Source: a virus
Taxonomy: Duplodnaviria; Caudoviricetes
Virus record (IMG/VR): IMGVR_UViG_3300021255_001258
Location: 1 to 64,000 of that record
Strand: one strand, 5' to 3'
Length of the DNA: 64,000 nucleotides
Shown here piece after piece: positions 31,306 through 64,000 of the stretch. The notes under the pieces were generated by a model. That model was not told where the DNA came from. It worked only from the letters and a program-made list of their open reading frames with translations, and ran no database searches. The number at the start of each line of letters is the position of its first letter. Position 1 is the stretch's first letter. Position numbers and translations under genes: made by a program.

Positions 31306-32511
31306 TTACTTAGATTCTGATGTATACAGAATCGAATCACTAGCAGTAAGACCAAGCAACTCGTGAATAGTCTTCCATGTCAACACGCCGTTTGCCACGC
31401 AAAGGACCTTGCCGTTCTGAGAAGCCGACACATTAAGCGCCGAGAACATTCCAGACGGCATAAGACCATTTGCAGACGTTGTAGCTGTAGAATAAGTCGT
31501 ATCCTTGGCAGGAATACCAAGAGCGGTAATATCAGCCTTCGTGACCGCAGTAGCGTCGCTGACATGTCCCATAGCGTCTACAGTGACCTTATAAAGGCCA
31601 GAAGGCCTTGCGGTATAAGACGGATGCGTATAAGCATTTGCCCCTGCGTCGATTCCGTTCAATTTACTCTTGTCGGAAGCAGACATAAGCCCATCAGCGG
31701 ATGTTGTTGCGTTTACAAAGTTTATACTCTTATCGGCGCTTCCGTTAAATGTGAATTTATTTGTTCCTTCAGTCGTACCGCTGTTAATTTGCATTGTAAA
31801 TGTATGACCAACCTATGTCGCCGTACCACTAAATGATCCGACAAACGTTGTCCCAGTGAGTGTACCTGTGAGTGTTCCACCTGCTAACGGCAAGAACTTA
31901 TCATCTACATAACTCTTTGTTACCAGATGATTGCTTGCGGTCGGTGCGGCAGATATCACGTTTCCACTTACTGTTACGTCTCCACCCCAGCTTACTGAGA
32001 TGGCATTGCTTCTAGCATTTTCGCCAGTACCATTCCCAATCGAAAATGCGTAATTTGCATCAGGTTGATTATATTTACCAAACGCCACAGCACCTACAGA
32101 AGATGCCGTGACATGTGTTCCAATTGCTACCGAATAATCACAGTCAGCCAGGTTGTTTGCTGTGTCTCCTATCAGGACACTGAGTGATGTGCCACCAGTC
32201 AGCTACTCGTCATTTTCTGTTGACAGCCCACGACCTTCCTCGTCCACATAGAAATAGACGTTTCCAAGCTTTAGTAACTCGCTGTGCGTAATGCCGTCAA
32301 TAGATGACAATAGGCTTTTATCTTCTTTAGATAGAAGACCGTCAGCAGATGTCGTGGCCGGTGCGTATGCTGTACTGAATGTGCTTGATGTACCATCCCT
32401 TTTAGTGACGGTGACGGTGCGATTACTCTCTGTTACGCTGGCGACCGCAGAGGCGTCCTTAAGGTTATACGATTGATTATTAGGCAACTTTAGAACAGAA
32501 AGGTTTGCCAT
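31306..32511 (-). CDS. tail fibre-like protein, 401 aa with TAG=Gln
   Basis: Three same-frame ORFs joined at TAG 32203 and 31813, ending TAA; repeated ADGLMSxxDK motifs, YTHPS. Confidence 0.8.
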
Positions 32512-32529
32512 AAGCGGACACCTCCTTCA

Positions 32530-33486
32530 TTAAGATACAGTAATTGTGTCTTCATTTCCTGTGAACGTACCAGTAAATGTATTCGGCACAGCAATATTTC
32601 CCGTGACAAGCCTAGCTCCAGTACCACTAAATGACGCACTGGCAGGTACAGAAATATTATCAGTAACAAGCCTAGCTCCAGTTCCGGTGAACTCAGGTGC
32701 GGTAGCTTCATAATCAGCATCCCCGGTCTTTACGGTAACATCACTGGTAGTAATAGAATCGCCAGTTGTATAACCCAGTTGATAAAGGCTCAGAGTCTCG
32801 CCAGTTACTGAATAGTAAGTAACAGCATTATCAGGGGCAGTAGCACCGGGCGCAGCCGCCACAACTGTCTTTGCAACAGTAACCTTAGTGGGATTCTTAA
32901 CCGTAGTGGTCGATCCAGCTGTTTTAACGCTAATTGAAGGTGCGGCAACACTTCCTTCGGGCGTATACGTGGCAGTACCAGTCGCCGCTTTACTAACTGT
33001 AGCTGTCTTGTTTTCATTTGTAAGAGTAACAGATCCTGCGGGAGTATAGGTGGCAGCATGACTTCCATCAATTTCCTCTGTTGAGACAGTAGCTGTCTGA
33101 TTAGATGTTGTGGCTACAGCAACACTTACGGTCCCAGACGGGGTATAATCACCACTTGCGCTGTCTTTGAATGCAAGCGCTCCAAACGATCCTGCGGCAC
33201 CAAATTCTTGCCATTTAGCCCCGTTCCATATGAACTCTCTTTCTCCATACAGAACAACTGCACCTGCGTCATCAGTGGTAAATGTTACGCTTTCGCCGTC
33301 AATAATAAGAGTGGAAACCGTTGAGCCATCCGTAACCTCTGTGGTTGTAATGCCAGCATAATGCACAGCTTTAGTTATTGCACTTTCGAGGTCACTAATC
33401 TTATCCCAAGCGTCCGCATCTTTAAAATGATAAATACTCCCAGAAGGAAGCTACACCTTGCTTAAATATGACTTAGTATCAGGCAT
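32530..33486 (-). CDS. Thr/Gly-rich virion protein, 318 aa with TAG=Gln
   Basis: ATG at 33486 with AAGGAG RBS; SKV(TAG)LPSGSIYHFKDA parallels SVLKLPNNQSYNLKDA of the next gene. Confidence 0.8.
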
Positions 33487-33503
33487 GATATTCTCCTTCC
33501 TTG

Positions 33504-34256
33504 TTAAAATATAGTTAGGATTAGTTTCTCCTAATCCGAGTTAGAAATAATGGGGCGGACTTTATTGTTCCAGAACTCTCTTTCCGCCTGTGTAATATGC
33601 ACTTCAGAGTCAAGAACGTGAGTCATTAATTCACTGTCATTGCCGATTACAAATGGCAGATCTATCAGGTAGGCATTCCCGTCACCAACTTTAATTCCCG
33701 GAACATATGTAATATTTCCCAGTTCGTCCTGAGTTGTCTTGTAATCCGTGTATACATAGATGATACCGGATTCAGAGACAAGGTCGTGCTGGGCGTTCCA
33801 GTATGCCATGGTATTATATTTGACATTCCTGCCAACATTAATATCAATAAGATCCCGCCATTCTGTATCTGGCTCTTCAGCATATTTCCACTGGATCATA
33901 TCATTGTTATTCCTAAGAACAACCGTGTCGGCTTTAAGGCTTCTGACCCATTCATCTTCCGTGCCTATATAGCCGTGTTTCACCGCTAATTCATATGCCG
34001 AAAGCCCTCTGAGAAATGTTTCAATTATTGACCCGTTCATTGAAGAGGATTTGATTGTCCCAGACAAACCATTTGAGTACAATGAAGCTGTGCCAGACAA
34101 ACTGTTAGATTGTAATGAAGCCGTGCCAGATAAACTGTTTGAGTGCAATGAAGCCGTCCCAGACAAACTGTTAGAGCTTAATGAAGCAGTCCCAGATAAA
34201 TTACCGGTAGAAGGTACGCCGATTATGCCAGTTAATTCTCCAGTCATACCCGTCAT
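33504..34256 (-). CDS. virion/tail accessory protein with 11-aa tandem repeats
   Basis: (LSGTASLxSNS)x4 at about 34060-34205; GLSAYELAV..G..GTEDEW; KVGDG; TAG 33531 is read through to TAA 33504. Confidence 0.7.
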
Positions 34257-34260
34257 AGCA

Positions 34261-34641
34261 TCACCCCTCGTTGAGCGGAAGAGTTACTTCGTCCATTATC
34301 TCGAAACTTGCGGCTTCTATAAATGTAAATACATCGCCGTTACTAAACTCAATTTGAACATCATACACATATGATTTAGTCATGTCTGCACTACGTGTAT
34401 CTTGCGGCTTAATATGCCATATAATCTGAACGGTTTCTTCTTCATCCTGAGTTACGACATTCTTAATGATTTCCCCTTCGAATAGCAGATTGCCATCATT
34501 AACCGCATCTCTGACTTGACATCTAACTACATCTCCATCCCCTGGAATAATTGCATTTCCAGAACCATCAATAATATCAATCGTTATGTACGCAGAGTCT
34601 CCACGGGTGATTGAGATGTTATTTTTTTTGATTTTCAGCAT
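34261..34641 (-). CDS. BppU-N-like baseplate protein
   Basis: ISITRGDS..IKPQDT..YVYDVQI..GDVFT. Confidence 0.65.
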   Translation of the reverse strand: MLKIKKNNISITRGDSAYITIDIIDGSGNAIIPGDGDVVRCQVRDAVNDGNLLFEGEIIKNVVTQDEEETVQIIWHIKPQDTRSADMTKSYVYDVQIEFSNGDVFTFIEAASFEIMDEVTLPLNEG

Positions 34642-34667
34642 GTACGGATACCTCCTTCCTTATATAA

Positions 34668-34690
34668 GAAAAGACCACATAAGTGGTCTT
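34668..34690 (-). terminator. hairpin terminator after the recombinase module
   Basis: AAGACCAC-TTAT-GTGGTCTT followed by TTCTT. Confidence 0.55.
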
Positions 34691-34718
34691 GTTTATGGTT
34701 ACGAAATATATATATAAG

Positions 34719-35153
34719 CTAGCGCAATTTTGGAATCATGCCAGCTTCTTTTTTAGCACTAACTGTTCTACGTTTTTTATTTTTAGCAAGATTCTCCGGC
34801 GAATTCCTGCGCTTCCTTGGTCTGAATTCTAGCAACTTAGGCTGTATAACATCAGTTCTTCTGACAACATTTAGATTTGACTCCAATTTTTTGTACACAG
34901 GAACTATTATTGAAAAATGTTCGTTATTGTCATGCATAAACCTTTGGCGATGATCCCGTGCGGAATCTTCGGTTTTAAACAATACCTTTGGATTTTGCGG
35001 AAGGTTAATAAGGTGTCTGCCGTTCTTGCCAATATAATATGAGATGTCCAAGTCTTCAATGTCTGCCAACACTTCTTCGGTAAGCCCACTCAAATTCACA
35101 GGTCTTTTTATTTTAATTGCATATCCAATTATCTCTCTTCTAGATGAGTACAT
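34719..35153 (-). CDS. basic hypothetical protein, co-transcribed with the recombinase
   Basis: GGAGG RBS; 144 aa; ends in TAG just before the terminator hairpin. Confidence 0.6.
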   Translation of the reverse strand: MYSSRREIIGYAIKIKRPVNLSGLTEEVLADIEDLDISYYIGKNGRHLINLPQNPKVLFKTEDSARDHRQRFMHDNNEHFSIIVPVYKKLESNLNVVRRTDVIQPKLLEFRPRKRRNSPENLAKNKKRRTVSAKKEAGMIPKLR

Positions 35154-35162
35154 AAAACCTCC

Positions 35163-36176
35163 TTATGCACCAAAACACTTATGATATTCATACTCTACAT
35201 CTGTCAAGTTTATTTTCGAATATATAAGCGTAGTGTCCAAGCTTTTATGACCTAGTAGCACACGAAGCTGCTCGATTGGCATTCCCTTCCTTAAGCACAC
35301 AGTAGCAAAAGAATGACGAAATACATGTGCAGTTAATTTAGTACTTAATTGAACACGATTATTCATCTTTTTAATAATTATTCCAATTGAAGATTTGTTT
35401 AATCCATTATATGGATATTTATCAGATGTGACCACATATTCATTATTCCCACATTTGGACATCTTGTATTTGAGTAATGATACTTTGGTGATCCCATTAA
35501 AAACAACAGTTCTGTATTTACTACCTTTGCCTAATATCACCATGGTTTTCTTGTTCATATCAATATCAGACCACTTCAAATTAGCAAGTTCACTAATGCG
35601 AATGCCCGTATAGAAGAGAATGTCAACAATCGCCCTTTCTCTGTACGTTTCGCAAGCACAACGAACAATTTCAAATTCTTCTTCATTTATAGGATTACGT
35701 GGCTTGGCGATATACTTAATAGGGTTAATGTTACCGACAAAATTTTTGGCTACATATCCTTCGTTTGCTGCCCATGCGAAGAATCCATTAATAATAATCC
35801 TACACTGGTCAAGCGTATAATTGCTGACACCTTTACGCTTCTGATAGTCATACAGATAATGAATCATCAGAGTTGAATCCATCTGATCCACGGGCGCTGG
35901 TTTATTTAAGAAAAAGTCCATGAGATAGTAGTTATACAATTTTAGCGTCTCAACGGATCTTCCAGCAAGTTTCTTCCTTGCAAGATATATTGCGTAATAC
36001 TTCGGCACAAACTCATCAGCAGGAACAATTTCTGTATTACGAGGTTCGATTTCATAATCAGACACGGTTTCTTCAAGTATTCTCTTAACGGTTTCAAGTT
36101 GCTCTCCACTCAGTTCTTCTACTAGCTGAGAGATTATCATTCCGATTAGCTCATTACGCTTCGACAATCTACACAT
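35163..36176 (-). CDS. XerC/D-like tyrosine recombinase
   Basis: TGIRISEL, GKGSK.R, HVFRHSFAT, LLGH..LDTT.IY; no internal TAG. Confidence 0.93.
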   Translation of the reverse strand: MCRLSKRNELIGMIISQLVEELSGEQLETVKRILEETVSDYEIEPRNTEIVPADEFVPKYYAIYLARKKLAGRSVETLKLYNYYLMDFFLNKPAPVDQMDSTLMIHYLYDYQKRKGVSNYTLDQCRIIINGFFAWAANEGYVAKNFVGNINPIKYIAKPRNPINEEEFEIVRCACETYRERAIVDILFYTGIRISELANLKWSDIDMNKKTMVILGKGSKYRTVVFNGITKVSLLKYKMSKCGNNEYVVTSDKYPYNGLNKSSIGIIIKKMNNRVQLSTKLTAHVFRHSFATVCLRKGMPIEQLRVLLGHKSLDTTLIYSKINLTDVEYEYHKCFGA

Positions 36177-36703: not shown

Positions 36704-36860
36704 TCTCCGCCCACGAGGGGCGGAGATGAAAGATTATTTAATCCCGAAGGCCGGGCGAATGCCAAGCCCCGTGCTCGAAGCGTCGAAGTAGTAGCAAAGC
36801 CCGCTGGCGCCGACACGAGCGAAATGCGAAGAAGAAACAACAGAACGAAGCCACCAGTCC
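36704..36860 (-). other. DGR-type variable repeat plus downstream hairpin
   Basis: WWLRS..F.RV...G......AS..GIRPAF with NNY codons at the variable sites; 9-bp GC hairpin at 36704-36726. Confidence 0.7.
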
Positions 36861-37975
36861 ACACGATTACAAATATATTGTGGTGCGAGAGCAAACAGGG
36901 GGAGCTGTCCTTTATCAATAGTATATGCGGCAGGAATATTTGTTCCGTTAATGATGTTCTCGAAGAACTTGTTGCCATATATCATCGACTCGTTCATCAA
37001 ATCTACAGTGCTGTCTGTCCACGTTCCTCCAGATACATATCCGTTCGTTACTGCATTAGAGAAATATTCTCTGTGAGTCAGAATATGTGAAGACCCGAAA
37101 GCATTCTGTGCCTTTGTGACGCACTGCGCTTTCGCCGTATTCGATGAACTGTCGGCATTCGTACCGGAGAAGAATCCGCTCCCAATGTAGCCGCCTTCAG
37201 TAGTATTTGAAGTATTCATATAATGCGTTGTGCTTCCGTCTGCGTTCAGCAAATTGCTGTCAGGAACGATGACAGCATGGTGAGTCGTGCATGCTGTGTC
37301 ACCGCAATTCAGCCAATAGTCGAAAGCTGCAATACGCCACGTTACTGAGTTAATTACCCAATAGTCGCCGATATACAAATCATCGAACGTCCCACCGCTG
37401 ATTGCCGACCACTGAGAAGCGGTAACAGATGTTCCGAGGTTCTTGCCACGGAAAACGGAGTTGTGACCACCTGCGTTTGCTCCTGCTTGTTTGCTATTTA
37501 ATTCGTCTACCTCCTCACGGGAAGGCAAACGTTCCCATGATGTCCATCCGCTTCCCCCCAGTGTTCTTCTGTAAATGTCAGTCATTGTATATTGTGTTTG
37601 TATTTTCCGCACATTCGAAACCAGAGTATAAGTTATTACAACACATCTTTCATCATTCTTGGCTAAGTTGCTATGTCCTGATACAGCGGAAGATACGATA
37701 CATCCATCAGCGCAAGTGTTTCCATCTATCCCGCCCGATGTATATCTCAGAACCAGATCAGTCTTGCTATTCAGATCGTTAAATGCGGACTAAATAGTCT
37801 TTGTTGCACCAGCAAGTTGCGATGCATTATATTGTTCGATAATGGCTTTCGCCAAATTTGTATAACTAATTTTCTTGAGGGCAGTACCTCCATCAGAAAT
37901 AAATATTTGATCGTTACTGTCTATAGCAGTAACCGTAGGTTTAGTATTAATGTCAGTTGTTTGAACATCTGCCAT
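36734..37975 (-). CDS. receptor-binding tail fibre with C-terminal CLec-like (DUF6273-like) domain, 413 aa with TAG=Gln
   Basis: ATG at 37975, TAG 37790 read through; DLYIGDYW..WRIAAFDY..HHAVIVPD; two LNSK module junctions. Confidence 0.8.
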
Positions 37976-38097
37976 AATTTTTATCTCCTTTCTGTCATTC
38001 AATAAAATACTAGTTTTATTATATTTCAATATAAAATCATAATACGTAAGTAAATAAAGGGTTTTTATAATTGGATATATCCAATGAAATGTGAGTT

Positions 38098-41000
38098 TTA
38101 TTTAATTATACAATAAAATCCTGTTCCTGTACCTTCTGTTGTTTTTAATGTTATCGTATTTCCGCTTATTGTAGGATTATTTAATTTTGATCCTTTATGG
38201 ATTCGATAATATTTCCAACCGCCGTCATATTTTACATAAAACAATCCAGTAATTTCTATATCTGATGAATGTCCAATTCCAATTAGATACTATCTAGAAG
38301 TATTACTACCCAATGAAATGTTTGTACCAGACGTCGTAGCCGATGTATTAGTTGCTCCAGATAAAAACGATGTATTAGAAGAAAGAAAATCACTAGTATT
38401 TGCATATGCCGCACTGCCAAGTCCTTTCACACTTGCATTTTGTCCAGCAATCTTTACTTGTCCATTATTATCTCCAGTTCCGACAGAAATACTATGCTAG
38501 TGATCGCCACGAGCATATGCGGTTTCAGAACCTTTACTACTACTAGAAGCAACAGCTTTTGGAGTAGTGTCGGATGGGCTAACAGATGTCCCACCACCAG
38601 AGCCAGCGTTTGCACATACGGATGTTAAATTATATAGCTATCCACCTGTTTTTACATAAATATTTCCATTGTTTGTATTTATTGGCATACCAATCCATGG
38701 ATATGAACCAGATGCAATTGAACCAAATCGAAGCCAATTATTATAACTTCCACTTACTGTTCCAAGATCAGATGGACTAATTGACTGAATACATTGGACT
38801 GTTTCATTTAAATGACTAGAGTCTTTTTGATAAAAAATCCTATAATTGAATCTTGCATAGAAATCCCCAGCTTCAACCTCTCCTCTGTCTTCAGACAAAT
38901 TACCTTTTACAATAACTCTTCCATTATCTCCATAACCGGTAGCATCAATCACACCGGCATTTATTTGAGTAGCAGCAACAACAGGGGCTGTTATTGTCCA
39001 TTTTTCTGACCCGCTCTCAGGAGAACCAATTAAAGAAAGATTTCCGTCAATTTCCACGGATGTATCATTAACAATATAAATTCCATTTTTGGCGGACAAT
39101 TTCATTTTCCCATAGTCATCATGTAATACCTATCCATTAGTCCATGTTTTATTTGCATAACACATTGTGATATACGTTCCATATGTTCCATTTTGCCCAA
39201 TCCTTACTTTTGCATTGTTTGCGTCGGCAATATATTCCGCCTTAATCAATGAAGTAAGAGAAGAATCAACATTATTTTCTGTCGTATATATATTAAATGT
39301 ATTTGCGGATATAACACCTTGAACTGTTGCGTTCCCACCACTATCTACTTTAAATTTATTACTAATACTCAGCCCATTATCTCCAAAATATGCATTGTTT
39401 TGCGTGGATGTATTCGCAGCTCCCATTGTTGAGCTACCTTTATAAATGGCGGTTGATGTTATTTTCCACGGCCCAATTTTACCTATTTCTCCAGTCGTTC
39501 CATTTGCATTGATTTGAAATACATTATTTTCCCCGATAGAAATACCATCTGTTCCAAGATAAAATCCGGCAGCGGTACTCGCCAATGAATCTTTTCCATA
39601 CTGTAACGAAGTTTGTGTTTTCTAATTATTGCCAGTACCAGTTACATTAGAACCAATATTAATATTGTTTACAACTGTTGTCCCGCCAATAGTTGAATTT
39701 CCTATTGTAGTACCAGATTTAATACTTGTGTTTCCAGAAGCATCTGCCCAAAATCCGTTACCAATTGCAACACCGTCTGTACCAAGATAAAAACCAGCTT
39801 TTGTACCTTTTTCATTCATTGATGTTATATTGTAATATATTTTAGGAGAAGCTGAACTTCCGTCTATGTGCAAACTACCAACGTCAATGTTACCAGTAAA
39901 AGAGCCAGATGAGGCTGTAATTTTCCCAGAAATATCTGCACCTACTGCTGTTATTTTGCCACCAGAAATTGATACATAAGAATTTGCTGAATTATAATTC
40001 CTTATTCCATCAGTTCCAACATATGTTCCGGCAGTTGTGCTTGATATTGTGTCTGTACCATTATAAATACCATTATGTCCATTTGTTCCGTTGCCAATTG
40101 TCCAACCACCAATTTTGCCAGAATTTGCATACATATATCCATTAGTAGTTACACCAAACGCCTTACCAATTGACATTGCCCATTTATTTGAGCCAGAAGC
40201 ACCACCAATAGCAGCATTAACAGTTTCGCCTTTAGGAGTTAAAATAATTGCTTCGGTAGCAGCACCATGAGTTTGGTTGCCATACCATAACTTATCAGTT
40301 GTAATATTCCAACCACCAATGTCGCCAGTTTTTGCTTTTATGTATCCGCTAATTTCTGCATTGTATGCTTTGAGTAATCCGGCTGTGGAAATTTGAATTC
40401 CTGGAGTAGTTGTGGTGTGTGCATCGCCACCAATCTTCACATCTCCGCCCAGAGTTAAAGACTACGCATTTATATGTCCATTGAAATATGCTCCGGCTGT
40501 CATACCTGATCCGCTCGGAGCACTATTGATTATTGCAAAAGTGGGAGAGAAGAAGTTGCCATTCGCCAAATCGAGATAACTACCTGTCTGTGAAAACGGT
40601 TTTGTATTGTTGTTATATGATAAGAAATTCTAAGACATAATGGCATTTGTTGCCAGATGCTCAGAATTAATTGTATGAGTTTTGATGTAACCACCATTAA
40701 TTGTAGTAGTACTTGTTATTGCATCCGAAGCCCATGCTGTTAATATAGTATTTGCGTTTACGGATGTATTATAGGCTAAATAAGCTCTTGAGATTGCTTC
40801 GTTTAATCCCTTATCTTCAACAACATCTGTGGCTTTCTTGGTTCCATCTTTATATGTAACAACCTCACACTTCCAATATAATTTTCCGATCTGATAATCA
40901 GGAGTTGTTGCAGACCAATCTGAATTTGTGAGCGGATTGTGATTTGGTTTTGATGCCGACAAGAAATAATATGGAACTGTTGAATCAATACCAATACCAT

Positions 41001-42459
41001 TTCTGGCTACTGTATATGTTATTGATTCGGAATCATCATCATAAATAATCTTTGTCCTTGCCCATATATAATCTCCATCTTTGCTACTCGGAACATTAGA
41101 AGACCATACACCATCAGAAAGTGGAAGACCATTTCCGTCGGCAAGAGGGTTTCCGTTAACATCAACCAAGGGCATACATGGAATAACAGTGCCAGAAGAC
41201 GATGCAGTATATTTTATCTCTGTCGATTTTACTCCATTGCCAGTATTTCCGGTATGCCCAGTTAAACACACAATAGTGGTTGTATCAGTTCCGGTTCGCG
41301 AAGTCTTTACTGTTTTTTGCCAAATATACTTACCTTCTTGAAATGTTGGAACGGTTGAACTCCATGTTGTTGGCTAGACAGTAGGATCATTGCTTACTCC
41401 ATAAGTAGTGACAATATCTCCAATATTAATACTTTCGACTTCATTTTCAACATCAGTAATTCTTTTTTTGGTAGATGTATCAAAAGAATTAAATGTAACT
41501 TTTCCTGTCAAATCTATATCTCTTGCAATTATTCTTAAAGCATCATTTGTAAGCGTCATATTAGAAGAACTTGTACCGGATTCAACAAGCCATGTAAAAT
41601 GATTTGCAGCCTGATTTGCAACTGTTTTTAATGAAGTTGTGCTGTCTCCAAGAATATCCTATGAAATTGTCCGAGTATGTTCATCGGCGGTATCTTTAAT
41701 ATCATGCACTCTTGAAGCCAATGTTGTAACAACAGTTCCATCAGCCTTTGTTACAGTTGTAGTTTCATCATCAGATATTGCTGTCCAAATGCCGGACAAA
41801 TCAATTTCTGTATTATTTACTCTATCTCTTACCGTCTACACGGTTTCACCATCATACGAACTTATCTTTGCATCAATATCAGTTTCCCAAACCTTTTGAA
41901 TAATCTTTTGCTCAAGTTCGTCTGTCTTATTGATAATACCATGTAACGTTTTTGAATACACTGCATCTGAGTAACGAATAGTACCATCAGTAAGCATAAA
42001 CTCAAATCGTTCCCAAATAAATGTTCCATCAGAAGCATCCGGTTCTGTATATTGCCAACTTCCTCCAACTAAACGACTGTTAGATGTTGAAAGATAATAT
42101 TGTCTTCTTTCTGTTGCAATGCTTGCGCCATTATAACCAACAGAGTATGTAACAGATTCAGAGTCATCATCAAAAATTGTTGTTGTTCTAGACCACAAAT
42201 AAAACCCATCTGGTATCTGCGGAATTGCAGAAGTCCATCTGGAATCCACTAAAATATTTCCGCTCTCATCAGCGAGAGGATTTCCAGAGCCATCAACTAA
42301 ATATTTGCCAGGTGGGTCGGTAGGCGAAAGCCCTCTTGCATACTCAACAACTGTTGATTTTACACCAGCTCCGGGTAATCCTCGATCACCTTTATCGCCT
42401 TTATCCCCTTTTGCGCCATCATTGACATTTGTAACAACTGCATATCCTCTTGCAATCAT
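38098..42459 (-). CDS. large tail fibre/spike, about 1453 aa with TAG=Gln
   Basis: Six same-frame fragments; collagen-like GDKGDKGDRG, YxWxRT repeats, G.IGGW.I repeats, YARGDH(TAG)H; ends TAA. Confidence 0.8.
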
Positions 42460-50347: not shown

Positions 50348-50352
50348 GGTTA

Positions 50353-51960: not shown

Positions 51961-51995
51961 TGTTTTCCTCCTTTCTGAGAGTAGGATTCTACTCA

Positions 51996-52402: not shown

Positions 52403-52684
52403 TTAGCCAACTGGCTCATCGTCGTCAACTGCGCTATTAAGTTCTTGTGTTCTGTCAAGCATCGCCATGTCATAAGTGATGCCGCCAACTGTGTTCTGAG
52501 CCTTGCTCTTGTTGAAGTACCCCAGAACAATCGGTACTAAAGATACCGGAACTCCAATCAAAGCATACATTGCCGACAAATCTCCATACTTATTCATCAT
52601 GATTTCCGCAAAGATAATTATTTCAATGCAGATTATAAAAACAACCAGTAACACAAGTTTACTGGTGGATATCTTTTTCTTCAT
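52403..52684 (-). CDS. two-TM holin-like protein
   Basis: MKKKISTSKLVL, two hydrophobic helices, KSKAQNT.GGITYD. Confidence 0.6.
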   Translation of the reverse strand: MKKKISTSKLVLLVVFIICIEIIIFAEIMMNKYGDLSAMYALIGVPVSLVPIVLGYFNKSKAQNTVGGITYDMAMLDRTQELNSAVDDDEPVG

Positions 52685-52697
52685 AAGGATCGCCTCC

Positions 52698-53192
52698 TTA
52701 CTCGCCAAGAATGGCGTCAAGCATATTTACATCTTCAAACGTGAGCGTTGTGTCGTCCGGTAAAGACTCGACAAACGTATCCATGTTGATTTCTTTATAT
52801 TCATATTCATGTTTTTCTGCGAGAATATCATTTAGTTCCTGTTGTAGTTTAGACATTGCAACTTGGTATGCATCAATGAATTCGTCCTTAATCTGTCGAA
52901 CAGTTTCCTCGACTTCTTTACCGTCTTCATCCAGTACATATTCGCCGTTTTCATCTTTCTTCGGGCGAGTAATTTCTTCAGATTTTTCTTCGCCAAAATA
53001 TTCATCACGGATTTTCTGGATTTCAGAGTCACGGAATTCTTCAAACTTCTGAGCGTCGGGCAGAAGAGTAGCAATAGCATTCTTCAACGCCCAACGAGTT
53101 TTCAGCCCCATAGCAGCATTCTTTTCTTCAGTAAGCTGATTCTGAAATGCAACGATATTTAAAACTTCAAGTGTGTTAAATGTTTTCTTCAT
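52698..53192 (-). CDS. acidic hypothetical protein, paralog of 30777-31284
   Basis: MKKTFNTLEVLNIV..LDAILGE. Confidence 0.75.
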   Translation of the reverse strand: MKKTFNTLEVLNIVAFQNQLTEEKNAAMGLKTRWALKNAIATLLPDAQKFEEFRDSEIQKIRDEYFGEEKSEEITRPKKDENGEYVLDEDGKEVEETVRQIKDEFIDAYQVAMSKLQQELNDILAEKHEYEYKEINMDTFVESLPDDTTLTFEDVNMLDAILGE

Positions 53193-53253: not shown

Positions 53254-56200
53254 TTATTTTCTACCGAGTTTTCTTGCTTCTCTAGCATTATATTTGTTTG
53301 TGTATTCACATGCTTGCTTCAAGATATCCTGAAGTTCTGGTAATACATCTCTGGTTACATCTCCCTAAACAGTCAACAGCGATTCATAATTGTTGGTGAT
53401 ATTTGTAGACTGGTCAACTTGAGACGGAATACTCGGCATCTTCATTTGAATGAATGTGTGTGGATCAATTGCGCCCCATTTCATAAGATTTTCTGTAAGA
53501 TTTGCGGGGATTACTCCATCACCTTTAGAGAGAGGAGTGAGGTATGCACCGTCTTTGCGAACGAGGAGTTCGCCGGAGTGCGTCCAGTGAGAGCCAGTAT
53601 ATGGAATACTTGTTATTCCTTTTGCATAGCCTTTCTTTGAAGATTTCCAGCCAGTATCTTTAAGTTTCTTGAGAAGAGCAGCAGCTTGCGTTTCGTTCAA
53701 AGATTTCTGATTAGCGGTTACACCGGAGATTTTTTGATCTACTGCAAGCTATACAAGTTCTTTGTCTGTTGGTGTTTTGCCAGTTATACCTTTTATATAT
53801 TCTTTGAGATTCTATTCTTCGGCTTTCTTTATATCACTTGTGATATTACCTGAACTTGTGGTTGCTGCATTTGATGCTGTAATCTTTGTAGTTTTATTAT
53901 CACTCTTGAAACTTGTTGTGCTTGCAAGGCTTTTGCCATAATTTGCGGACAACACATATCCTTCAAGGTCAAATCCATTATACTGTAAAGCCGTTACAAT
54001 AGCTTTCTTTTGAGCATCTGTTAACTTCTTTCCACTTGCTTCTGTCGGTAGTCCAGAAACATTTGTATATGCTTTACCAATATGTAACATTTCAGCTTCG
54101 GTTAAGTCTTGACCTGTTGTATCATATATATACTTCCATAAAACATCACTTTGTTTTGTCGTAACTGTTCCAGCATCCGGCGTTCTATTTCTTGAATATA
54201 TATATTGACCTGCACCTTGATTTGTTCCAAAACCATACTGCTTCATTGCTGCCAGGATTTTATTACGAGCATCCATTGAAAGATCTTCTTCTTTGGTAAC
54301 TTTGCTCTTATATGGAACGCCCTCAAGATCAGCCCCAAAATCTCTCAGATATTGCGCCAAATGGGCCATTTCTGTAGCTGAAGCATCTTTTCCACCAGTA
54401 AGCTTGTAAAGATAATTCCACAAAGCATCATCTTTATGATTATTAATAGCTTCTGTACTTGCAACTTTACGGGAAGCAGCATAGTTATACATCTTTGTAA
54501 GAGTATTTCTACGTGCTTTTGCCTGTGTAGCAGTTTCTCCACCGGCAGCTTGTTCTGCTTTTTTCTTATCATCCGCATCAGTGTAGCTTGTCTTTTGTTG
54601 GCCGTTTGCCTCAAGACCTCCAACCATTTCCTCATAAGCGGAACGATATTCTCTCATTGCTGTTGTGAGAAGACCAAGATTCTCAAGAGCTTCTTGCGCT
54701 CCTACTGTCATGAATCGAATTGGGTTTGTGCTTATATTATCAACAACGGTTTCCCACTATGTCTAGAAAGAAGAAAGCGTACCTTCATTTTCTTGAACCT
54801 AAGCAGCCCATGCTTGAAGTGGTGCGAGAGTACCATTCAAGTCATCAATTTGTTTTTCTGCTGTTTTTCCGACTACGGTTCCGGTTTGTTTTATCTTAGC
54901 TTGAATTGCACTATATGCACTATCATAATTCTGTTCAACTCGTTTAAGCATCATCGCAACTACTTGCTCTTGAGCTTCTGCATTTCCTTCAACATATTTA
55001 AGCGTATCATCAAGATTCTTTTGTGCTTTGTTTGACAATTCATCGTATCCTTGCTGTTGCATATCTATGCTGTGTTGATAACGAGTATCCGCAAGATCGT
55101 CTTCTTTCTCAGAAATCTAAGCCTTTACTTGTGCAAGGCGGGCTTTCGTCGCAGCATCTTGTACACCGGTAAGGGCTGCCGCTTCTGCGCGAAGCTGTTG
55201 CAATTCTTTATTTTTGCCCTAAAGAGTACGGTTATAATCGTAATAACTCTTTTTGGCTGACAGGCTCTTCTTTCTAAGGTCGATAAGTTCTTGTAATGCA
55301 CGATTCTCATTTGTAATCTACGTCTTATATACATCAATAATGGATTTCTTCAGTTGCTCATTTGCAGACACACTCTGCTGAATTGTCTCTATATGCTGAC
55401 GAGATTCTTCTTCGTATTGCTCCATGGAAATAATTCCAGCGTCATATTCCTCATGTAGTTTCTCAAGAGCGCCACGTTCATTTGCAATAAGTTGATTGTA
55501 ATTCTGAATCTCTGCACCATAGAGCGCAAGTTTTGCGTATCCTTCTTCTGTGATTTCAATTTGGTCACCAGTATCAAATATTTCTGCATCGCTAATAAGA
55601 CTATTGAGATGTTCAAAGTCAGACACTGTTTCTTTAATAATTCTCTGAATTCTTTCGAACGGCTCCCATCTAGTCTTACGAATTGCCTCAGAAAGTTCAA
55701 TGTTGGCAGTAGCAAGAGAGATGGCAGTCTCACGAAGTTGCTGAAGTTTTGCATAACCTTCATTCCACTTATCAGAACCAGGCTCCCATTGTTTCATTTG
55801 CTCTGCAAGAGCAGCGGACTGTTTATCAATCTGAACGATTTCCAAATTGTTTGTATCTATCTGTCCTTGATATGCAGTTCTTCTTTGTGCAATAGATTTC
55901 TGCATCGTGCTTACATCTACACTTGGGAAATTCTTACGAGTCCCAACTTTTTCATAATAACCAGCAATACCTTTAAGAGCACTTGAGAAACGACTTAATC
56001 TTTCTATGGCTTGACCAATAGCGTCAATATCAAGCTGTTTTATTTTGTCGCCCATCTCTACAATAGCAGTATTGGTATCCCAAATGCTTGCCTCAAGATC
56101 AAATAATTTGGCTTTGGCTTCATGATATTCGTCAGTATTTTTCTTGCCAGCCGCCTCTAAATCACTAATGATCTTGGTATATTCGGTATATTGAGACGAC

Positions 56201-59200
56201 AAATATTTCTGTTGTTCTTCAAGACGAACACGTTCTTGATTGTATAACTGTTTGAATGTTCCGCTATTAGCTCTTGTTCCGGTAGCAGTATAATATGCTT
56301 CTTTAGACTGAGTAACTTTCTGAGAGGACTGGACCATATGAAGGAGTCCACCCCATTTTTTATCAGCTTTATCAAACTGCGCTTGAGCAAGTTCAGTTGC
56401 CGCATTCTTAGCAGCCTTCTGGAGTTCAACCAAACTTGTCTTACTTTCCCAATACTCTTGAGTAAGTTGAGCAAGCTGTGTCTGCGCCTCTTGATATTCT
56501 TTACTATTGACACCATATATCTTAGCTGCTTTCTCAAGCTCTTTCTCATAGTCCTTCATTGCCTGTTCGTTGTACTTAACAATTTCTTTCTGACGGACAA
56601 TCTGAGAACCCATATTCTGTCGGATAACTTCGCGGTCTTCACCACCACTTGCCTGATAGTATTCAAGCATAGCTTTTGTGGACGCTTGGATAGCAGAAGA
56701 GCGTTCGGCGAGAGTGCCGTATTTGCTTACAATGTTATCAAGTTTCGTACCTTCGAGTTCTTTTAATTGCTTCTGAAGTTCAATATTTGCATCTACACAA
56801 TCTTCTGCGGCATCTGTCCACTGTTTATAGGATTCAATGAATGTGCGGATTCCCTCATTGTAAGATGTAATATCCAAACTTCCACTATTCAAAGCCTTTA
56901 TAATCTGGTCAGCTTCAGTTGCCGACAAAAGTCCGGCATTAATAGCCTCAGTACGAACTTTATCTGCCTATGTTCTATAATTCTTTGCGGCTGTTTCATT
57001 ATTGCTGATTTGTTTTGTTACAAGTTTTGCTGCCTGATCAAGATAATTGTTCTTGTCTCTTGTATTTGTTGCAAGTTCGGCACGGCTTGTAAGACGTTCG
57101 ATTTCACGGTTTGTCTTTTCAAGTGTGATTTCGGCCATGTTAAACCAATCAGCTGTGGCCTTTTGGAATTTTTCAATTGCTTCTTTTATTGCATCTTCTG
57201 TTTCCTTAGCGGCATCACTAACAGTGCTTGCGACTTTTTTGCCTGTATCTTTTGCAGTATTAGCAACATCTTTTCCGGTATTTGATGGAGTATTTGTACC
57301 TGGAGTTCCAGGTTTAAATTGTATGCCGCCATTTCCGCCATAATGAGATGGCATACCATTATAAGCCAACGTCCCACTAGCCAACGCACGAGCGCCACCA
57401 ATAAGATGACCTTTACCAGAAGCTCGACCAGTTGACATGAGTGCCTTAACTTGGCTATGAGAGAGTATGACGTCACCTTTCTTCAGGTTTTCAACATGCA
57501 TACCTCCCGGAAGAATCGAGAACACACCGTTCCTAATTAATCCTTCCGCGCCGACCTCATTTACAAGTGCTGTCTCATCTTCCTGTAGAGATACATTTGT
57601 TCCTCTAGCATGAGCCGGAATTGCATTGACAACATTATAAGCAGTACCAGAAGCGTGAGCATGGAATGTTCCGGCTGCATCGCTTCCCTGAGCTGGCATT
57701 CCACTTACTCTAGCATGAACACTAATACTATATTGCTGATTCATGATATTCGCGAGTGCACTTGTTATTCCCGTCGTGTTTGCACCAACAGTAATTGTGG
57801 CAGTTCTATGGTTAATACTAGCCACAGCAATATTCGCAGCGTTAATTGCTTCAGAATTATCGCCAGCAATCTTCATAACTGGTTTCTTATTGCTAGCATA
57901 TTTTTCGGCAACATCCGCTTTGGTTCTTACATCGGAAGAATCTCCATTAATTTTCATTTCCGCCGGATTGTCTTCAGCATGCGCCTTAGCTGTATCAATT
58001 GCTTCCATTGCTTTTGTATTATCAGCGACAACATCCATTTTTGCTTCTGTTATTGCCTACGTGAGGTCTTCTATTTGTTCGGACGAAATTTCAACTTTGA
58101 TTGGTGCTTCCAAACTTTCAATCTAACTCTTAAGTTCTGCTAATTCTTGTTTGCCCTATTCGGTGTTAAGATCAATATTAAACTCTTTTGCAAGATCTTC
58201 GTCTGCTAACGATTTCAGTTCTTCAAGTCCAGATATTACTTCGTCTTTTCCTTCGAGGATTGTATTAATGTGTATCTGACGATCATATGTTTTAATTTCG
58301 TTATCTGTTGCGAGTGCCTCGTCGGATCCATCCTCCATGCCTCGTCTTGCTTTTATTAATTGGACTTTCCTTTGTTGCAATGTTTCATTATCTAATTGAG
58401 AAATGTCACCACCCAAATTAAACGAGATATCAACATCCCCGCTTTGCTGCAGTTCTTTTATTTTTTGTCTACCCTATTCAAGCTATTCATTAAATTCTTC
58501 TGCCCCTTGAATAGATGGACCAAATTCTGCATCGGGTGTCCAATCAATAAGTCCCATCTAGGACAAAACAGTCATTAATGCTTTGCCATATTCCTGACCA
58601 AGACCAAGTTCTTTTAAAATTCCATCGAGAGCCTATTCAGCACCTTCTAATTGTGTTTTCCCATCACCAAATTCAATTGTTCCAAGTTCTTCGTCTGAGA
58701 ATTGTTTAAGTGTATTAAGATACTTGCTGATGGCCTCGTTGTAACCATTTATCTTATCACCATCAAATAACTCATGATTGTGCGCAACTTCGGCATATCG
58801 GTCTGCCATTTCTTTTGCGTCTTCACCCTTAAATGTTGCCATAAGAACAGGCAATTCAACCTATTCACCATTTAATGCTTTCTCGGCATATTCTTGCAAT
58901 GCTTCTGGTTCTAGTACATCGCCATTCGGAAGGATTGGTGTCATAACAACGGCTGTCTGATTATCATCGCTGGTATACGTCTAACTATATAATGTCGCAT
59001 AATCTCCATCGAAATCAGGATAAAATTCTTGCATCATGCGAGGAGTAACTCTGGCTCTGTGATTTAAATCAACATCTCCAAATTGAGTTCCAGACACGAA
59101 ATCCGTCATTGCAGCCTCATAACTAGCGCGATCAATTGTAAAATCTTTCAAATTAATCGTAACACCGTATTCATCTGCCATTCTCTGGACTTCGTCCATG

Positions 59201-62200
59201 ATACGTTTCATACCAACTTGATCACCCATATTCTCCGCCGTAGTATAAGCCTGACGAAGGGCATCAACTGTATCTGGTAAATTCTTAAATCCTTCAATGA
59301 AAGACTACTGAGAACCAGCAACATAATTATTTGTGGCGGTATCCAAATTAGTAAGGTCATCTTTTAATCCTTGAATCTGATTACGTTTTTCCGCCAACAC
59401 ATCTTCGCTCGCTCCGGCAGCAACAAGTTGTGCATATTCAAGTTGTGCGTCTGTCAACTGTGTTTTGAGGTCGCTTGCTTTTGCAGAAGCTTCTTCAAGA
59501 GAAGATACATATGCAATATTTCCACCGTAGTCATTGATACGCCCCATCATGTCCATAAAGAATTCATCAGACATACCCATTTCAAGAGCGGCTTTTGCAG
59601 AATCCGCAAAATCAAGAGAATATCCAGTTAATGCATCGTATGTTGCCAATCCTTTAGAAACAAGATCATTGAGGAAATTGGTAACTCCAGATGCGTCATC
59701 TGTGAAGTATCTTTCAACTTTCTTATAATTCTGCTCAAATGTCTTCCAATCAGTTCTTCCGAATGGATCAAGATATGAGGCGCGAGTCTTGAAATCATCG
59801 GTTCCAATAAGTCCCTTATCAAACAGTTCCTTGCCAGTCTTCATATAACCTTGAGCTGTCTCATAGTCAGCACCTTCATTCTTCGTCTGGTCAGCACGGG
59901 CAATAGCAGCAAGACGAGAGAAGTTCTGCATTTGTTCAGCATAAGTAGCATAATACTGAGCCTGTTGACGCATATATTCAGCCATTTGTTCATTAAGTTC
60001 ACGAACTTTGGAAGTATCTCCGGCTTTCGACGCACGGTCGATTGCTTCCTGGATTTCATCCATCTTTGACGCAAAGTCCTGATTAATGATTTCATTCTGC
60101 TGTTCCGCAAGCCTCTGCAGTTCTATCATGTCAACTTTGACACCGTCAGCCGTAGCATAGAACACCGATGAAATGTCTGCTTCATTGGCAAGGTTGCTAA
60201 ACTGTGTGGTTAACTGCTGAATCGTATCAGATGAAAGTCCAGTTTCGGTTGTCATTTCTGACATTGCAGTCGAAATAGCAGAAGAGAGTGCTTGAGCATC
60301 GGAGATTACGAGGTTTTTGATTGTATCGTCGTAATTTGCGATGTCACCAAGGAGAGAAGAGATAGAGGAGTTGTTGGCATCGATTTCCTGACCAATTTCT
60401 CGCCTACGATCCGCAGTGGTTTCAGTTTTTGTAGCTTCTTCGGCAAGAAGTTTATTTTGTGTCCTCAAATTCGCAATCTGGTTCTTACTAAGGTTCTGAA
60501 GCGTTTTATATTCTTTCTCTGTTACTTTAAGTCCCTATGCTTGCTTCAAAGATATAAGGTCATTGATTTCCTATGCTTGAGATTTATATTCATCTAATGC
60601 GTATCCAAGTTGTTTAAGTTCATCATTGGAATAAGCAGAAGAGTATGTGGATGCTTGTTCACGAGCCGACTGAGCATTTGCCGCATGTTCATTTGCGTAA
60701 CCAAGATATTTTACTCTAGTAGCATCGCTTGTTACACGAGAAGCAGCATTTTCCCAATATCTTGCCATAGTATCTTCTTGTTCTGCTGTGTTTTGATATA
60801 ATTCCTGTAAAGAATCATATGTCTTCTTGGTTGTTCTTTGGCCTGATTTTTCGTTCTTGGCAACCAAATTCTCAAGTTTATCAATTTCTGTCTTGTTTAA
60901 GTCAACTCCACGTTGATACGCATTTGTACCAGCTTCAAGCTGTTCTGTTTGAAGATTTATTAAATCTATTTGAGATTGCGCTAAAGCCGATTCAGATTCA
61001 TTTAACGCTTTTTGCGCAGCTTTGTATGCCGGAGAACTGGTATCATAAATCCTATTTCGTTTTTGTCTCTTGTTGGAAACATCTTCCTGATTTAATCTGA
61101 TCGTTTCTTCTGCATTTCTTATAATCCCATCATAGTCGGCCTAAGTGATAATATCACCCTTTGCTTCTTTATATTCAAGTTCAGATCTACGCTTTTGCGT
61201 ATCAGAATCAAGCCTTTCTAGTTCTGCTTGTATTTTTGCTGTATCTGCATCAATTTCCCAGACCATCTTCATGTCTTTGTATTTTGCATAGATTTCGTCT
61301 GCTGTGCCGGAGAATTGGTCGGAGGCGATCATTTGATAAACTACGTTCCAATTGAGTTCTTCGTCACCAAGTTTTCCTTGGAGGTCTTCGATCTAAGAAT
61401 CAAAAAGTTTAGATAATCCTTCACGTTGCGCATGAGTGGCAGCATTGACATCAGCCGTAGCATTTAATTCCATAAACAAATCTTTTACATCCGATGATTC
61501 ATCTGCTAAATTCCCCATGGAAGATACAAGATTCTCGACATATGTATTTAATTGCTGTAATCCTTCAGCGGACATACCATCAACATTCGCACGAAGTTCT
61601 TTAATCCACTCTGTTAATTTTCCGACCGCCTTGTCGGATATTGCTTTTTCTGTAAACTCTGTTAAATCTGGGAATGAATCCTGAAGTGTCTTCATTTCAT
61701 CGGCTGTTAATGTACCATTTTCCCGCAAAGATTCAAGTGCTCCAGTGAGAGAGGAGAGTGAAGTTTCAAAAGATTGTGCTTTCTCCGCATAACCCTCATC
61801 ATTAAATATAGAAGATAAATTATCTGTAGGTTCAACTTTTTGTATTTCTTTTCTCGCCTCTTTATATTTCTCTAACCAATTTAAGAAATCTTCCAAACCA
61901 GAACCTTCATAATCAAATTTGCCTTTGATTTTTGCCTCTTGAACTAAATCAATATCTTCAAGACTAATACTACGTACTTCGTCCGAAGAAATTCCGAGTT
62001 CTTCTGCAAGACTGTCAAGATCGGCGGAATCCGAATAAAAATCTCTACCAGTTTTTTCATCCACATAAGTAAGACCAAGCATTACACGAATATTTTGCCT
62101 TATTTTATATGATTCATCATCATCTCCTGGGACAATTTCTCTAAGAACTTTGGCAAAATTATCTCGATATTCTGTGGTACTTAATGATTTATCTGAAAAT

Positions 62201-64000
62201 GCATCTAATAATTTCTTCGCATTATCTTCGGATGCTTTTGATATTTCGCCATTACTATCTGCTAATGCAGCAACAAGAGGATCAAGAAAACGTTTCCGCA
62301 AAAATGCTCTTGGATCATCACCCAATAAATTCCAATCATCATCTGATAATCCCTCTAAATCTAAATTCGTAATATCGTCAGCAATAATCTATTGCAACTA
62401 TTCTCCAACTTTAAGGTCCCCAAGTTTTTGATAATCTTCGTAAAGATTCATTTGAGAAATAAGCGAAGGAACTAATGCATTCCAATCAGCTTTTACTTCT
62501 GCCATATCGCTCTTCTTGATTGAAAGAGCTTTTATATACTCCTCCGGTAAAGAGCCTAAATCTGCTGATTGTACGGCTGCTTTAAATGTTTTTTCAAATT
62601 CTTCCACATTTTCTTCTGTCGCATCAGCAAGATTTAGAACAAGTCTACCAGCGGTAGAATCTGAAGCGGAATAATCCACATTCTTATAAATGGAATTTGC
62701 TGCATCAACGTACATCTTAGTAATCTGGTCAACAACCTTTTGCATACTTGGATCGTTCGGATCATAATCCCACCTAAGTGTACCGTTTTCGTCTAACCCT
62801 AATTTAGAAATGTCAATTTCAGCACCCGTTTTCCCGGCTTTTATTGTGTCTTGTATTCCTTTTACCGTATTTACTATATCTGTCTGCCGAGCAATATCTT
62901 TCTATAATTCTTCATATCTAACTTGAAAGCCCTTTAATGCGGTTCCTAATTGTTCTCCAATCTAAAAATCGGCAAGCTGCCTTTCTTCTTCTAATAAAGC
63001 AGCGATACTTTCTTTTGCTTTATCTGCGTTGGCGTCTAGTGTAAGAATAGCATTCCCTTGCGAATCAAATCCAGAAACGAGACTTGGGAAAAGATCTGCC
63101 ATTTGTTGATTCAGTGACAAGAATTCCTGATATTTCTCTGTTGATAACTCTCTGTTAGAGATTCCTTGATTTGTATAATCTACGCTTTCACGAAGTTTTA
63201 AATAATCACTAAGATTATCTTCCTAATAAGTTCGCCTTTGATCATATTGTTGCCGAATATCTGAAATCCGAGATTGTGCCTCTTGCCCTTTTTGAATCGC
63301 GATTTCTCGTCTATTGACATAATTTGAAATAGCATTGATTGTTGCACCAAGTGCTGCCGAAATTGCCATGGATATCCCAGCATTGACAACAGTAGAAAGG
63401 ACTGTACCTCCAAGAGATTTTAATCCAGATATTAGTTTTGAACCGCCACCTTGAGTTTGACTTGCGGTCTATTTTTCTAATTCCGCCTGTTGTTCTTTTG
63501 CTTTGCCAAGCGCTTGCGACAGATTCATTGCCTCTGTACTTGCATTTGCTAATCCTTGCACATATTGTTGAGCAGAAGAGGAGAGACCTTTAAAATCGCT
63601 CGACTATATAAATGTATCAAGATCTACAGAACTTCCGCCAGCTTGTTTAAATGCTTTTTCTAATTCTGGTATAAGATTCTGCTGTACGCCTGTGCCGATG
63701 CTCTTTGATGCGGATTGACCGAATTTCTGGAATATATTGGAGAATTTTCCTGATTTTCTGTCGAAGCCTAAAAATCCTATATCTTTGAAATTTGACAATA
63801 CTCCAAATACTGTTCCGACTATCATATTCAACCCACCAAAAGCGTCGGCGAGTGATGTGATTACTTCAATAGCTTTTGTACCAAAATCGATAATACCCTT
63901 AATCCAAGAAGAATCAATTGTAGTACTTATAAGTTCCTGGAGTCTGTTTTGGAATTGAGCCACTCGGCCCTCAATAGAATCGAGGTATTTATTTAGCTCC
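53254..64000 (-). CDS. tape measure protein, 5' partial, over 3500 aa with TAG=Gln
   Basis: 14 listed ORF fragments share one frame and each ends in TAG; helical, Ala/Glu/Lys-rich; ELNKYLDSIEGR, ALVNEVGAE, YAKG motifs; true stop TAA at 53254. Confidence 0.9.

Follow-up and report, generated by a model that had tools for sequence, protein, structure and literature searches.

How is the amber codon TAG read in a phage genome whose late genes fall apart into chains of fragments when TAG is taken as a stop? The question is raised by the IMG/VR virus record IMGVR_UViG_3300021255_001258, a single linear contig of 127,448 bp with 38.5% G+C, whose bases 1–64000 form the stretch analysed here and are referred to as the window. 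Plus-strand genes occupy 260–29940, the left arm, and minus-strand genes lie from about 30.2 kb onward, the right or late arm. The record is a fragment of a large siphovirus-type phage of ruminant and other animal guts; CheckV puts its completeness at approximately 65%, and no terminal repeat was found in the 127,448-bp contig. We assign a probability of about 0.9 to the reading in which TAG specifies glutamine (Gln) in the late genes, the left arm is free of TAG, and decoding most likely proceeds via a phage-encoded tRNA(CUA).

Translated with table 11, the minus strand of 31306–64000 yields fragments that follow each other in single frames and are split at TAG, as a preliminary description of this DNA had noted. 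Reading TAG as sense fuses them into open reading frames (ORFs) that abut their neighbors with gaps of -1 to 68 nt, and the late-arm genes terminate only in TAA or TGA. The same change raises the coding density of the right arm from 0.741 to 0.966, compared with 0.787 when TGA and 0.855 when TAA is made sense as controls, and moves that of the left arm only from 0.848 to 0.849; for the whole record the density rises from 0.765 to 0.891. Interruption of these frames by TAA or TGA had been named as the sign that recoding was illusory, and it is absent: the tape measure frame contains 64 TAG, 0 TAA and 0 TGA in 5430 codons, and the other two frames of the gene hold 131–185 TAA and 65–330 TGA. Late genes within or starting in the window have 114 TAG to 459 CAA and CAG codons, and the left arm has 0 to 213 (Fisher P=1.5e-17), so that TAG provides about 20% of the Gln positions in late genes, which include those for packaging, head, tape measure, tail and lysis. 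The density and codon-count signal is confirmed and is far beyond chance. The three peptide motifs quoted earlier as examples (YS*..., GD*TNREI and ARGDH*H) were located at 51228, 50925 and 38514. The suggestion that recoding is limited to the tail and lysis arm is correct as to the bias but not as to the confinement, as it reaches past the window on the same strand, up to about 92.6 kb, and takes in head and packaging functions, with eight TAG codons in the terminase large subunit (TerL) gene and two in the portal gene.

Comparison of TerL with deposited phages gave distant Bacillus phage matches only, the best with 25% identity over 37% of the query, and the lineage is therefore one without a deposited relative. 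In IMG/VR, 80 loci encode TerL relatives, and TAG is lacking from the TerL genes of those that are about 70% and about 48% identical; the 1302-aa tail protein, used as a query for related loci, found no relatives. TerL relatives are located in Lachnospiraceae and Lachnoclostridium metagenome-assembled genomes (MAGs), linking the lineage to the Lachnospiraceae.

The amino acid was determined at the codon level on the relatives' DNA, because some database proteins were probably called under genetic code 15 (TAG as Gln), forcing a Q at each TAG. At three conserved TerL columns that contain TAG in this phage, the distinct relatives have Gln, as a CAA or CAG codon, in 49/49, 51/51 and 54/55 cases; the remaining TerL TAGs sit in variable E/Q/I columns. 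Two TAGs in the lysin, at aa 260 and aa 361, correspond to Gln in 8/8 and 8/8 relatives with a sense codon there. The 36 scorable late-gene TAG columns have a composition (Q 38%, E 18%) similar to that of true CAA/CAG columns (Q 34%, E 11%), and Gln has the highest log-likelihood (-81.6), ahead of Glu (-98.5) and Ser (-123.1). Nine of them are at least 80% conserved, with six Q, two E and one L.

Population variation agrees with this. The stretch 45033–52000 was compared with contigs of further animal-gut samples (of the four runs, three belong to other studies), and the 37 best-supported coding differences in the read-through frame comprise 30 synonymous changes, 6 amino-acid changes and 1 CAG>TAG, the last showing codon 730 (position 46754) in the gene for the 1302-aa tail protein to be naturally polymorphic between CAG and TAG. 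The CAG share of CAA plus CAG is 64% in the left arm and 35% in the late arm, a drop that is expected if TAGs took the place of CAGs. That TAG is Gln in the late genes, as first proposed from peptide context, is thus well supported.

The left arm presents a different picture, with 0 in-frame TAG in 7324 codons. The identities assigned previously to its long genes (ligA, PARP/WGR, a split nrdD and an integrase), and the absence of internal TAG from them, are correct. TAG is missing as a terminator as well: of the 31 plus-strand ORFs that reach 100 aa, 0 end in it, whereas relatives with the standard code use it to end 115 of their 603 genes (19%; P=0.0014). Apparent left-arm TAGs are accounted for by overlapping out-of-frame ORFs, 5' extensions, and one possible real stop at 17716..17979, and an apparent exception elsewhere, at 105285..106457, has a start codon with AAGGAGG in front of it, and the TAGs lie upstream of that codon. 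Being free of TAG, the arm can be read by a standard-code host ribosome, but the description of this phage as having two codes goes too far: TAG is neither sense nor stop there, and the arm is code-neutral and readable under both codes, which does not show it to be code 11. This corresponds to the state that Borges et al. (bioRxiv 10.1101/2021.08.26.457843) call "standard-code compatible".

A phage that uses TAG as Gln is expected to have a means of decoding it. No suppressor tRNA had been visible in the window, and tRNA scans of the window found none; the suggested search of the remaining genome places a tRNA(CUA) gene on the same contig at 92721–92808, on the minus strand, 28.7 kb past the window end and approximately 3 kb upstream of TerL. 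There are four tRNA genes on the contig, all on the late strand, and this is the one with a CUA anticodon. It is located at a block boundary, with an 11-kb TAG-free block upstream and a recoded block downstream. The gene is detected both by ARAGORN and by the Rfam tRNA model (57.9 bits), and codes for an 88-nt tRNA with A1-U72, G2-U71, G3-C70 and G73, and a long variable region. Neither a release factor (PF00472) nor a GlnRS/GluRS core (PF00749) was found on the incomplete contig, and a promoter scan around the tRNA(CUA) gene gave no difference from shuffles.

The build of this tRNA is unusual. In the TerL-relative family an array of tRNA genes precedes TerL, and tRNA-Trp(CCA) is often the one nearest to it. 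The anticodon stem-loop of the suppressor differs from that of the relatives' (L009) tRNA-Trp(CCA) by C35>T alone, its D-arm resembles that of tRNA-Trp, and even over the full length its closest matches among all of the relatives' tRNAs are Trp genes; the suppressor does not resemble their tRNA-Gln and tRNA-Tyr genes. By these comparisons the suppressor is built on the family tRNA-Trp scaffold with C35U. An origin from tRNA-Tyr, as in supF, is suggested by the Tyr-like anticodon arm together with the long arm, and was rejected on the dissimilarity of the relatives' Tyr genes. We note that tRNA-Trp(CCA) is present upstream of TerL in most standard-code relatives (L009–L083), though Trp has a single codon. 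A 149-kb family member (L130:2281-2356) carries the family tRNA-Trp with only C35>T, and thus a CUA anticodon, and its local genes are not recoded; the L130 TAGs are ordinary stops four codons before the ORF ends and are uninformative as to the amino acid. L130 may be a precursor stage of recoding.

The Trp scaffold is compatible with charging by Gln. In E. coli, tRNA-Trp with a CUA anticodon (su+7) is charged by GlnRS (PMC2965240, PMC9976931), and GlnRS-type ORFs of 557–562 aa are present in 3/3 Lachnospiraceae-type genomes holding relatives of this phage, with no such ORF in the control genomes, those of B. subtilis and Lactococcus; it is thus feasible that Gln is attached by a route like that of su+7. 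In the proposed mechanism, the suppressor tRNA(CUA) encoded on the late strand would decode late-gene TAG as Gln, C35U on the Trp scaffold having switched charging from TrpRS to GlnRS as in E. coli su+7. We thus infer that the tRNA at 92721–92808 is the working suppressor and is charged by the host GlnRS.

An unusual feature of the suppressor is its 17-nt extra arm. An exact-pattern search of IMG/VR with this tRNA(CUA) gave 0 matches, and a looser search by the same CUA anticodon arm returned 18 contigs (24–239 kb), among which 11 have a long variable region; ten of these 11 share a hairpin with CUGA in its loop. Strong TAG recoding is seen at the long-arm CUGA loci L121, L132, L133, L135, L137 and L138, where density rises from 0.45–0.63 to 0.81–0.91, and there is little or no density gain at four others, L122, L123, L126 and L136, three of which are short loci. 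Searching by the arm motif, with the anticodon stem left free, identified 20 tRNAs, 19 of them tRNA(CUA) (13 distinct, with at least six different anticodon stems); the single non-CUA match is a genuine tRNA-Gln(CUG), in which the motif is the real anticodon stem-loop. When 16 distinct long-arm CUA tRNAs, including that of this phage, are aligned, 92% of cells are paired compared with 72% after shuffling, three helices (acceptor, anticodon and T) show compensatory changes, and the 1-72 pair is never G-C. The extra arm has the consensus of a 3-bp stem closing a 7-nt YY-CUG-AR loop, which is the form of a tRNA-Gln(CUG) anticodon arm, and it stands from the T-arm at the distance of an ordinary anticodon arm followed by a 4–5-nt variable loop, so that these tRNAs have two tandem anticodon-type hairpins: a canonical CU-CUA-AA arm, which would read UAG, and then, where the variable arm belongs, the CUG hairpin. 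The arm of the phage described here (GCG-UCUGA-UGC) is a diverged member of the class, and locus L177 joins the arm to the same Trp-like 5' half. We also considered an alternative-pairing switch, in which the arm loop would duplicate the 3' strand of the anticodon stem, and rejected this as the loop stays YCUGAR while the anticodon stems vary.

These tRNAs could represent a recurrent class of phage amber suppressors with two anticodon-type hairpins, in which the CUG hairpin would confer Gln identity; we offer this tentatively, as a possibility that we regard as somewhat doubtful. The CUG hairpin might present GlnRS, or a different enzyme of the Gln pathway, with a decoy anticodon; alternatively, the CUA and CUG hairpins might swap roles between charging and decoding. 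If true, this would explain how Gln comes to be placed on CUA tRNAs of unrelated scaffolds, including the Trp scaffold here. Two other phages with long-arm suppressors were used for the TAG=Gln test: for an L137 protein the relatives are 99% identical copies, and an L132 SLT domain has no TAG at the informative motif. We found no description of a CUG-loop arm in the literature searched, which is not proof of novelty.

Several further observations concern the suppressor and its surroundings. Directly 3' of the tRNA(CUA), at genome ~92644–92720 (minus strand), there is a 70-nt RNA predicted to form a three-way junction (-30 kcal/mol, z=-6.6). The sister phage G001 (L120) has a related sequence, altered by a compensatory change, 3' of its own tRNA(CUA), a tRNA of a different scaffold; the other long-arm suppressors lack the element on their 3' side, and no Rfam family matches it. 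Theta ribozymes, which are similar to those of hepatitis delta virus (HDV), have been reported to adjoin phage suppressor tRNAs at the 3' end (PMC10879173), and the arrangement here resembles these in having a strongly structured element directly after the tRNA 3' end, in a genome that also has an HDV-like ribozyme and an RNA ligase, but differs in that the adjoining element is a three-way junction. No Rfam match to an HDV-like ribozyme was found next to the tRNA(CUA) at E<=1, a search to which the Theta authors' own descriptor was not applied. The HDV-like ribozyme of this genome (Rfam HDV-F-prausnitzii, 53.4 bits) is at 111374–111445 (plus strand), between two plus-strand protein genes, 18.6 kb from the tRNA(CUA) and not adjoining any tRNA.

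Other unusual tRNA genes are present in related phages. L054:6107-6178 and L085:7631-7704 are opal-suppressor-type tRNA(UCA) genes in the TerL-upstream arrays of relatives with a standard TerL, and it seems that suppressors of two kinds of stop codon have arisen in the TerL-relative family. The recoded relative G002 has three minus-strand tRNA genes (L103:4070-4208, 5265-5378 and 7213-7331) with anticodon-loop insertions of 54–67 nt, two of which share sequence blocks, and which are too short for group I introns. G002 also has a tRNA-Lys(UUU) gene (L103:8142-8228) with a 5-bp long variable arm, and extra arms on normally class-I tRNAs seem to be common in this phage clade.

The fragmentation of the late genes under table 11 could also be read as the decay of a prophage whose genes have been broken by nonsense mutations. 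Only TAG interrupts them, however, with neither TAA nor TGA over the whole tape measure frame, the TAGs fall at conserved Gln sites, the variants in the fused frames are 30 synonymous to 6 non-synonymous, and the same pattern is seen in three relatives. Pseudogenisation is ruled out by the TAG-only interruption, the alignment at Gln sites and the synonymous excess, and we regard its probability as negligible. That TAG encodes a residue other than Gln is likewise very improbable. Trp could be suspected from the scaffold of the suppressor, Ser from its long variable arm with G73, which resembles SerRS identity features, Tyr from a supF-like route, and pyrrolysine from ARAGORN, which calls the gene "Pyl" from the anticodon alone. 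Yet none of the nine TAG columns conserved to at least 80% is W, S or Y, the log-likelihood for S is 41 units below that for Q, and the tRNA-Tyr genes of the relatives, as noted above, do not resemble the suppressor. The Gln assignment is therefore retained. Several points weigh against the account we favor. The D-loop of the suppressor is short and lacks GG, and together with the odd extra arm this leaves suppressor function not assured. The missing part of the genome could hold another suppressor, RF2 or synthetase gene. In G001, whose TerL is 89% identical, the tRNA(CUA) is another one, canonical and 73 nt long, with Gln-like acceptor features and with a weak 1-72 pair, G2-C71, G3-C70 and G73; G002 is near-complete and carries hundreds of in-frame TAGs, but has no recognisable tRNA(CUA); and the suppressor sequence of this phage was not found in G001–G004. 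G001 and G002 share the recoding architecture. With a different tRNA(CUA) in G001, none in G002 and an incomplete record, the tRNA at 92721–92808 may not be the sole or main suppressor. A few non-late ORFs, moreover, have TAG 3–10 codons before their ends, where it may serve as a stop. Taken further, the long-arm tRNA would not be a working suppressor at all, and TAG would be decoded by another tRNA, for example a G001-like one in the missing 35%, or by a host factor; the tandem short and long CUA tRNAs of L126, L132 and L136 fit such an arrangement. Opposed to it are the 57.9-bit score on the Rfam tRNA model, the conservation of cloverleaf and arm with compensatory changes across 16 distinct genes, and the strong TAG recoding of six loci of the long-arm class, although four show little or no gain, and we consider it unlikely.

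[quoted passage not shown] The preliminary description took this phage to be temperate, which is plausible: there are three tyrosine recombinases (28678..29940, 35163..36176 and genome 74237..75415), G002 is classed as a provirus by IMG/VR, and a Lachnospiraceae contig of 378 kb holds a 67%-identical TerL. The present record is itself linear, 65% complete and free of host flanks, and a temperate life stays no more than plausible for it. Because their frames are interrupted by TAG, the late proteins would need the suppressor for completion, and in a temperate phage they would not be completed until the suppressor accumulates. Such an adaptive lock between lysis and lysogeny, which is the published hypothesis of Borges et al. 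(10.1101/2021.08.26.457843), has in our estimation a chance approaching even. The pattern could also be a neutral by-product, TAG having drifted into genes translated after the suppressor and been purged from early ones, to which we give somewhat less than even odds. TAG does behave as a synonymous Gln codon, as seen in the CAG/TAG polymorphism and the depletion of CAG in the late arm, it occurs in variable and conserved columns alike, and L130, with a CUA tRNA and no local recoding, is a possible precursor state. Drift is less readily reconciled with the absence of TAG as a stop in the left arm (0/31 versus 19%), a depletion of the kind that Borges et al. read as preparatory, or with the preferential recoding of lysis genes in other clades (10.1101/2021.08.26.457843). 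Neither the stop depletion nor the lysis-gene bias decides between drift and a lock here.

The late arm is organized as a minus-strand series of tail and lysis genes, described here from the tape measure gene towards the distal end. The 3' part of the tape measure gene lies in the window (53254..64000), and its ORF extends to genome 69546; the predicted protein of 5430 aa (phrog_4211, E=4.6e-74; PF10145) is specified with 64 TAG codons, 31 of them in the window, and far exceeds the tape measure proteins of ~3150 aa noted for phage phAss-1, implying an exceptionally long tail. It is followed by a small holin-like ORF (52403..52720, 105 aa, 0 TAG), whose function is proposed from two hydrophobic segments in a hydropathy scan, and by a 130-aa ORF directly upstream of the lysin (51996..52388) with one hydrophobic segment and one TAG. 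The multidomain peptidoglycan hydrolase (50353..51999, 548 aa, four TAG) has Pfam GH25, ELLD/NlpC-P60, PG_binding_1 and SH3 matches, and may be an endolysin or a tail-associated lysin. A 193-aa ORF with one hydrophobic segment and two TAG (49841..50422) precedes genes coding for a distal tail protein (Dit)-like product (48941..49783, phrog_33, two TAG), the 1302-aa minor tail protein (45033..48941, phrog_6211, 17 TAG), an 848-aa tail protein (42474..45020, phrog_3267, seven TAG), and a 1453-aa tail fibre or host-specificity protein (38098..42459, phrog_6468 and phrog_15074, ten TAG) that contains the ARGDH*H motif. Beyond these are a 431-aa ORF with a weak DUF6273 match at its C-terminal end and one TAG (36734..38029), a tyrosine recombinase inside the late arm (35163..36176, PF00589, E=1e-31, 0 TAG), and, at the distal end of the arm, seven small to medium ORFs without assigned function and with 0–2 TAG each (30253..35153). 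With seven Gln codons, TAG avoidance in the 35163..36176 recombinase is not significant (P=0.21). The third tyrosine recombinase gene (genome 74237..75415, minus strand), located among the head genes, has in-frame TAGs at codons 23 and 79, and no later start codon retains the SAM-like domain; it departs from the rule that integrases avoid TAG.

The left arm (260..29940, plus strand) codes for LigA, a WGR-PARP protein, an RNA ligase, a Thg1-like enzyme, a split NrdD, an HNH protein and a tyrosine recombinase. The WGR-PARP, RNA ligase (PF09414) and Thg1-like genes are at 7609–11446 and 18243–19136 of the window. Phages with tRNA-processing ribozymes are strongly enriched in RNA ligases (Kienbeck et al., PMC10879173), and by this association the RNA ligase, Thg1-like and PARP genes may serve in tRNA repair or maturation. 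The nrdD gene is present as two ORFs 258 nt apart, 23270..24526 (Pfam NRDD 2–265) and 24785..25813 (264–562), which suggests an intervening element; no Rfam intron family was matched at the split (window 23270–25813). Outside the window, an ORF of 425 aa with RRXRR and HNH domains (IscB-like) lies beside a HEARO/omega-type RNA (RF02033, 127 bits) at genome 102203–103720 (minus strand), and from these matches the region is a predicted OMEGA-type RNA-guided nuclease module inside the phage.

The recoding strategy has been described previously for gut phages, and this phage is confirmed as a further code-15 (TAG>Gln) case. The code-15 gut phages of Borges et al. (bioRxiv 10.1101/2021.08.26.457843), which include the Garnet and Topaz prophages, similarly have TAG concentrated in structural and lysis genes, early genes and integrases that are standard-code compatible, and a phage suppressor tRNA, and gave rise to the same lysis/lysogeny-switch hypothesis. 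Their hosts are Firmicutes or Bacteroidetes with the standard code; the host of this phage is indicated indirectly, by relatives in Lachnospiraceae-type MAGs. It differs from them in belonging to another lineage, in being far larger than the 24-kb Garnet and Topaz prophages, in that no RF2 or synthetase was found on this fragment, and in the in-frame TAGs of one of its three recombinases. The crAss-like phages with code blocks analyzed with Mgcod (10.1101/2022.06.29.495998) also have a standard-readable block and a block needing TAG=Gln, but the phage described here is not a member of the Crassvirales, being of siphovirus type with a tape measure protein and a Gram-positive-type lysin; moreover, unlike in the "multiple genetic codes" of Mgcod, what is shown for its "standard" block is freedom from TAG rather than the use of TAG for termination. 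Peters et al. (PMC9523058) have proved code 15 by proteomics. The phAss-1 or "Phassvirus" group (PMC10607447) is similar in comprising gut phages of ~130–140 kb that have tape measure proteins of ~3150 aa, tRNA(CUA) genes, and TAG in the TerL, portal, tape measure and tail fibre genes, but there is no detectable TerL similarity to this phage, and phAss-1 has 36 tRNAs with three Gln-type suppressors, compared with four tRNAs and one Trp-scaffold suppressor on this fragment.

The closest parallel to the suppressor itself is E. coli su+7, in which a tRNA-Trp body likewise carries A1-U72, G73 and a single C35U change, and the codon that is read behaves as Gln; the phage tRNA differs in its 17-nt extra arm and shortened D-loop, and its charging with Gln is predicted. 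The E. coli suppressor supE, by comparison, is tRNA-Gln with its CUG anticodon changed to CUA. Among phage tRNA-Sup genes, 19.4% score as Trp isotype, which has been read as possible code 32 (Kienbeck et al., PMC10879173), whereas the Trp-scaffold suppressor described here accompanies a codon that is clearly Gln.

This phage provides a well-documented code-15 case from a lineage without a deposited relative, with evidence at both the codon and the population level that TAG is Gln. Its TAG-free "standard" arm bears on the annotation of such genomes, to which code 15 can be applied throughout. The findings also bear on a question left open by Borges et al., namely how a standard-code cell puts Gln on a CUA tRNA. 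Here the family offers a natural su+7-type switch from Trp to CUA together with a conserved arm resembling the Gln anticodon, and this suppressor architecture is the more useful lead.

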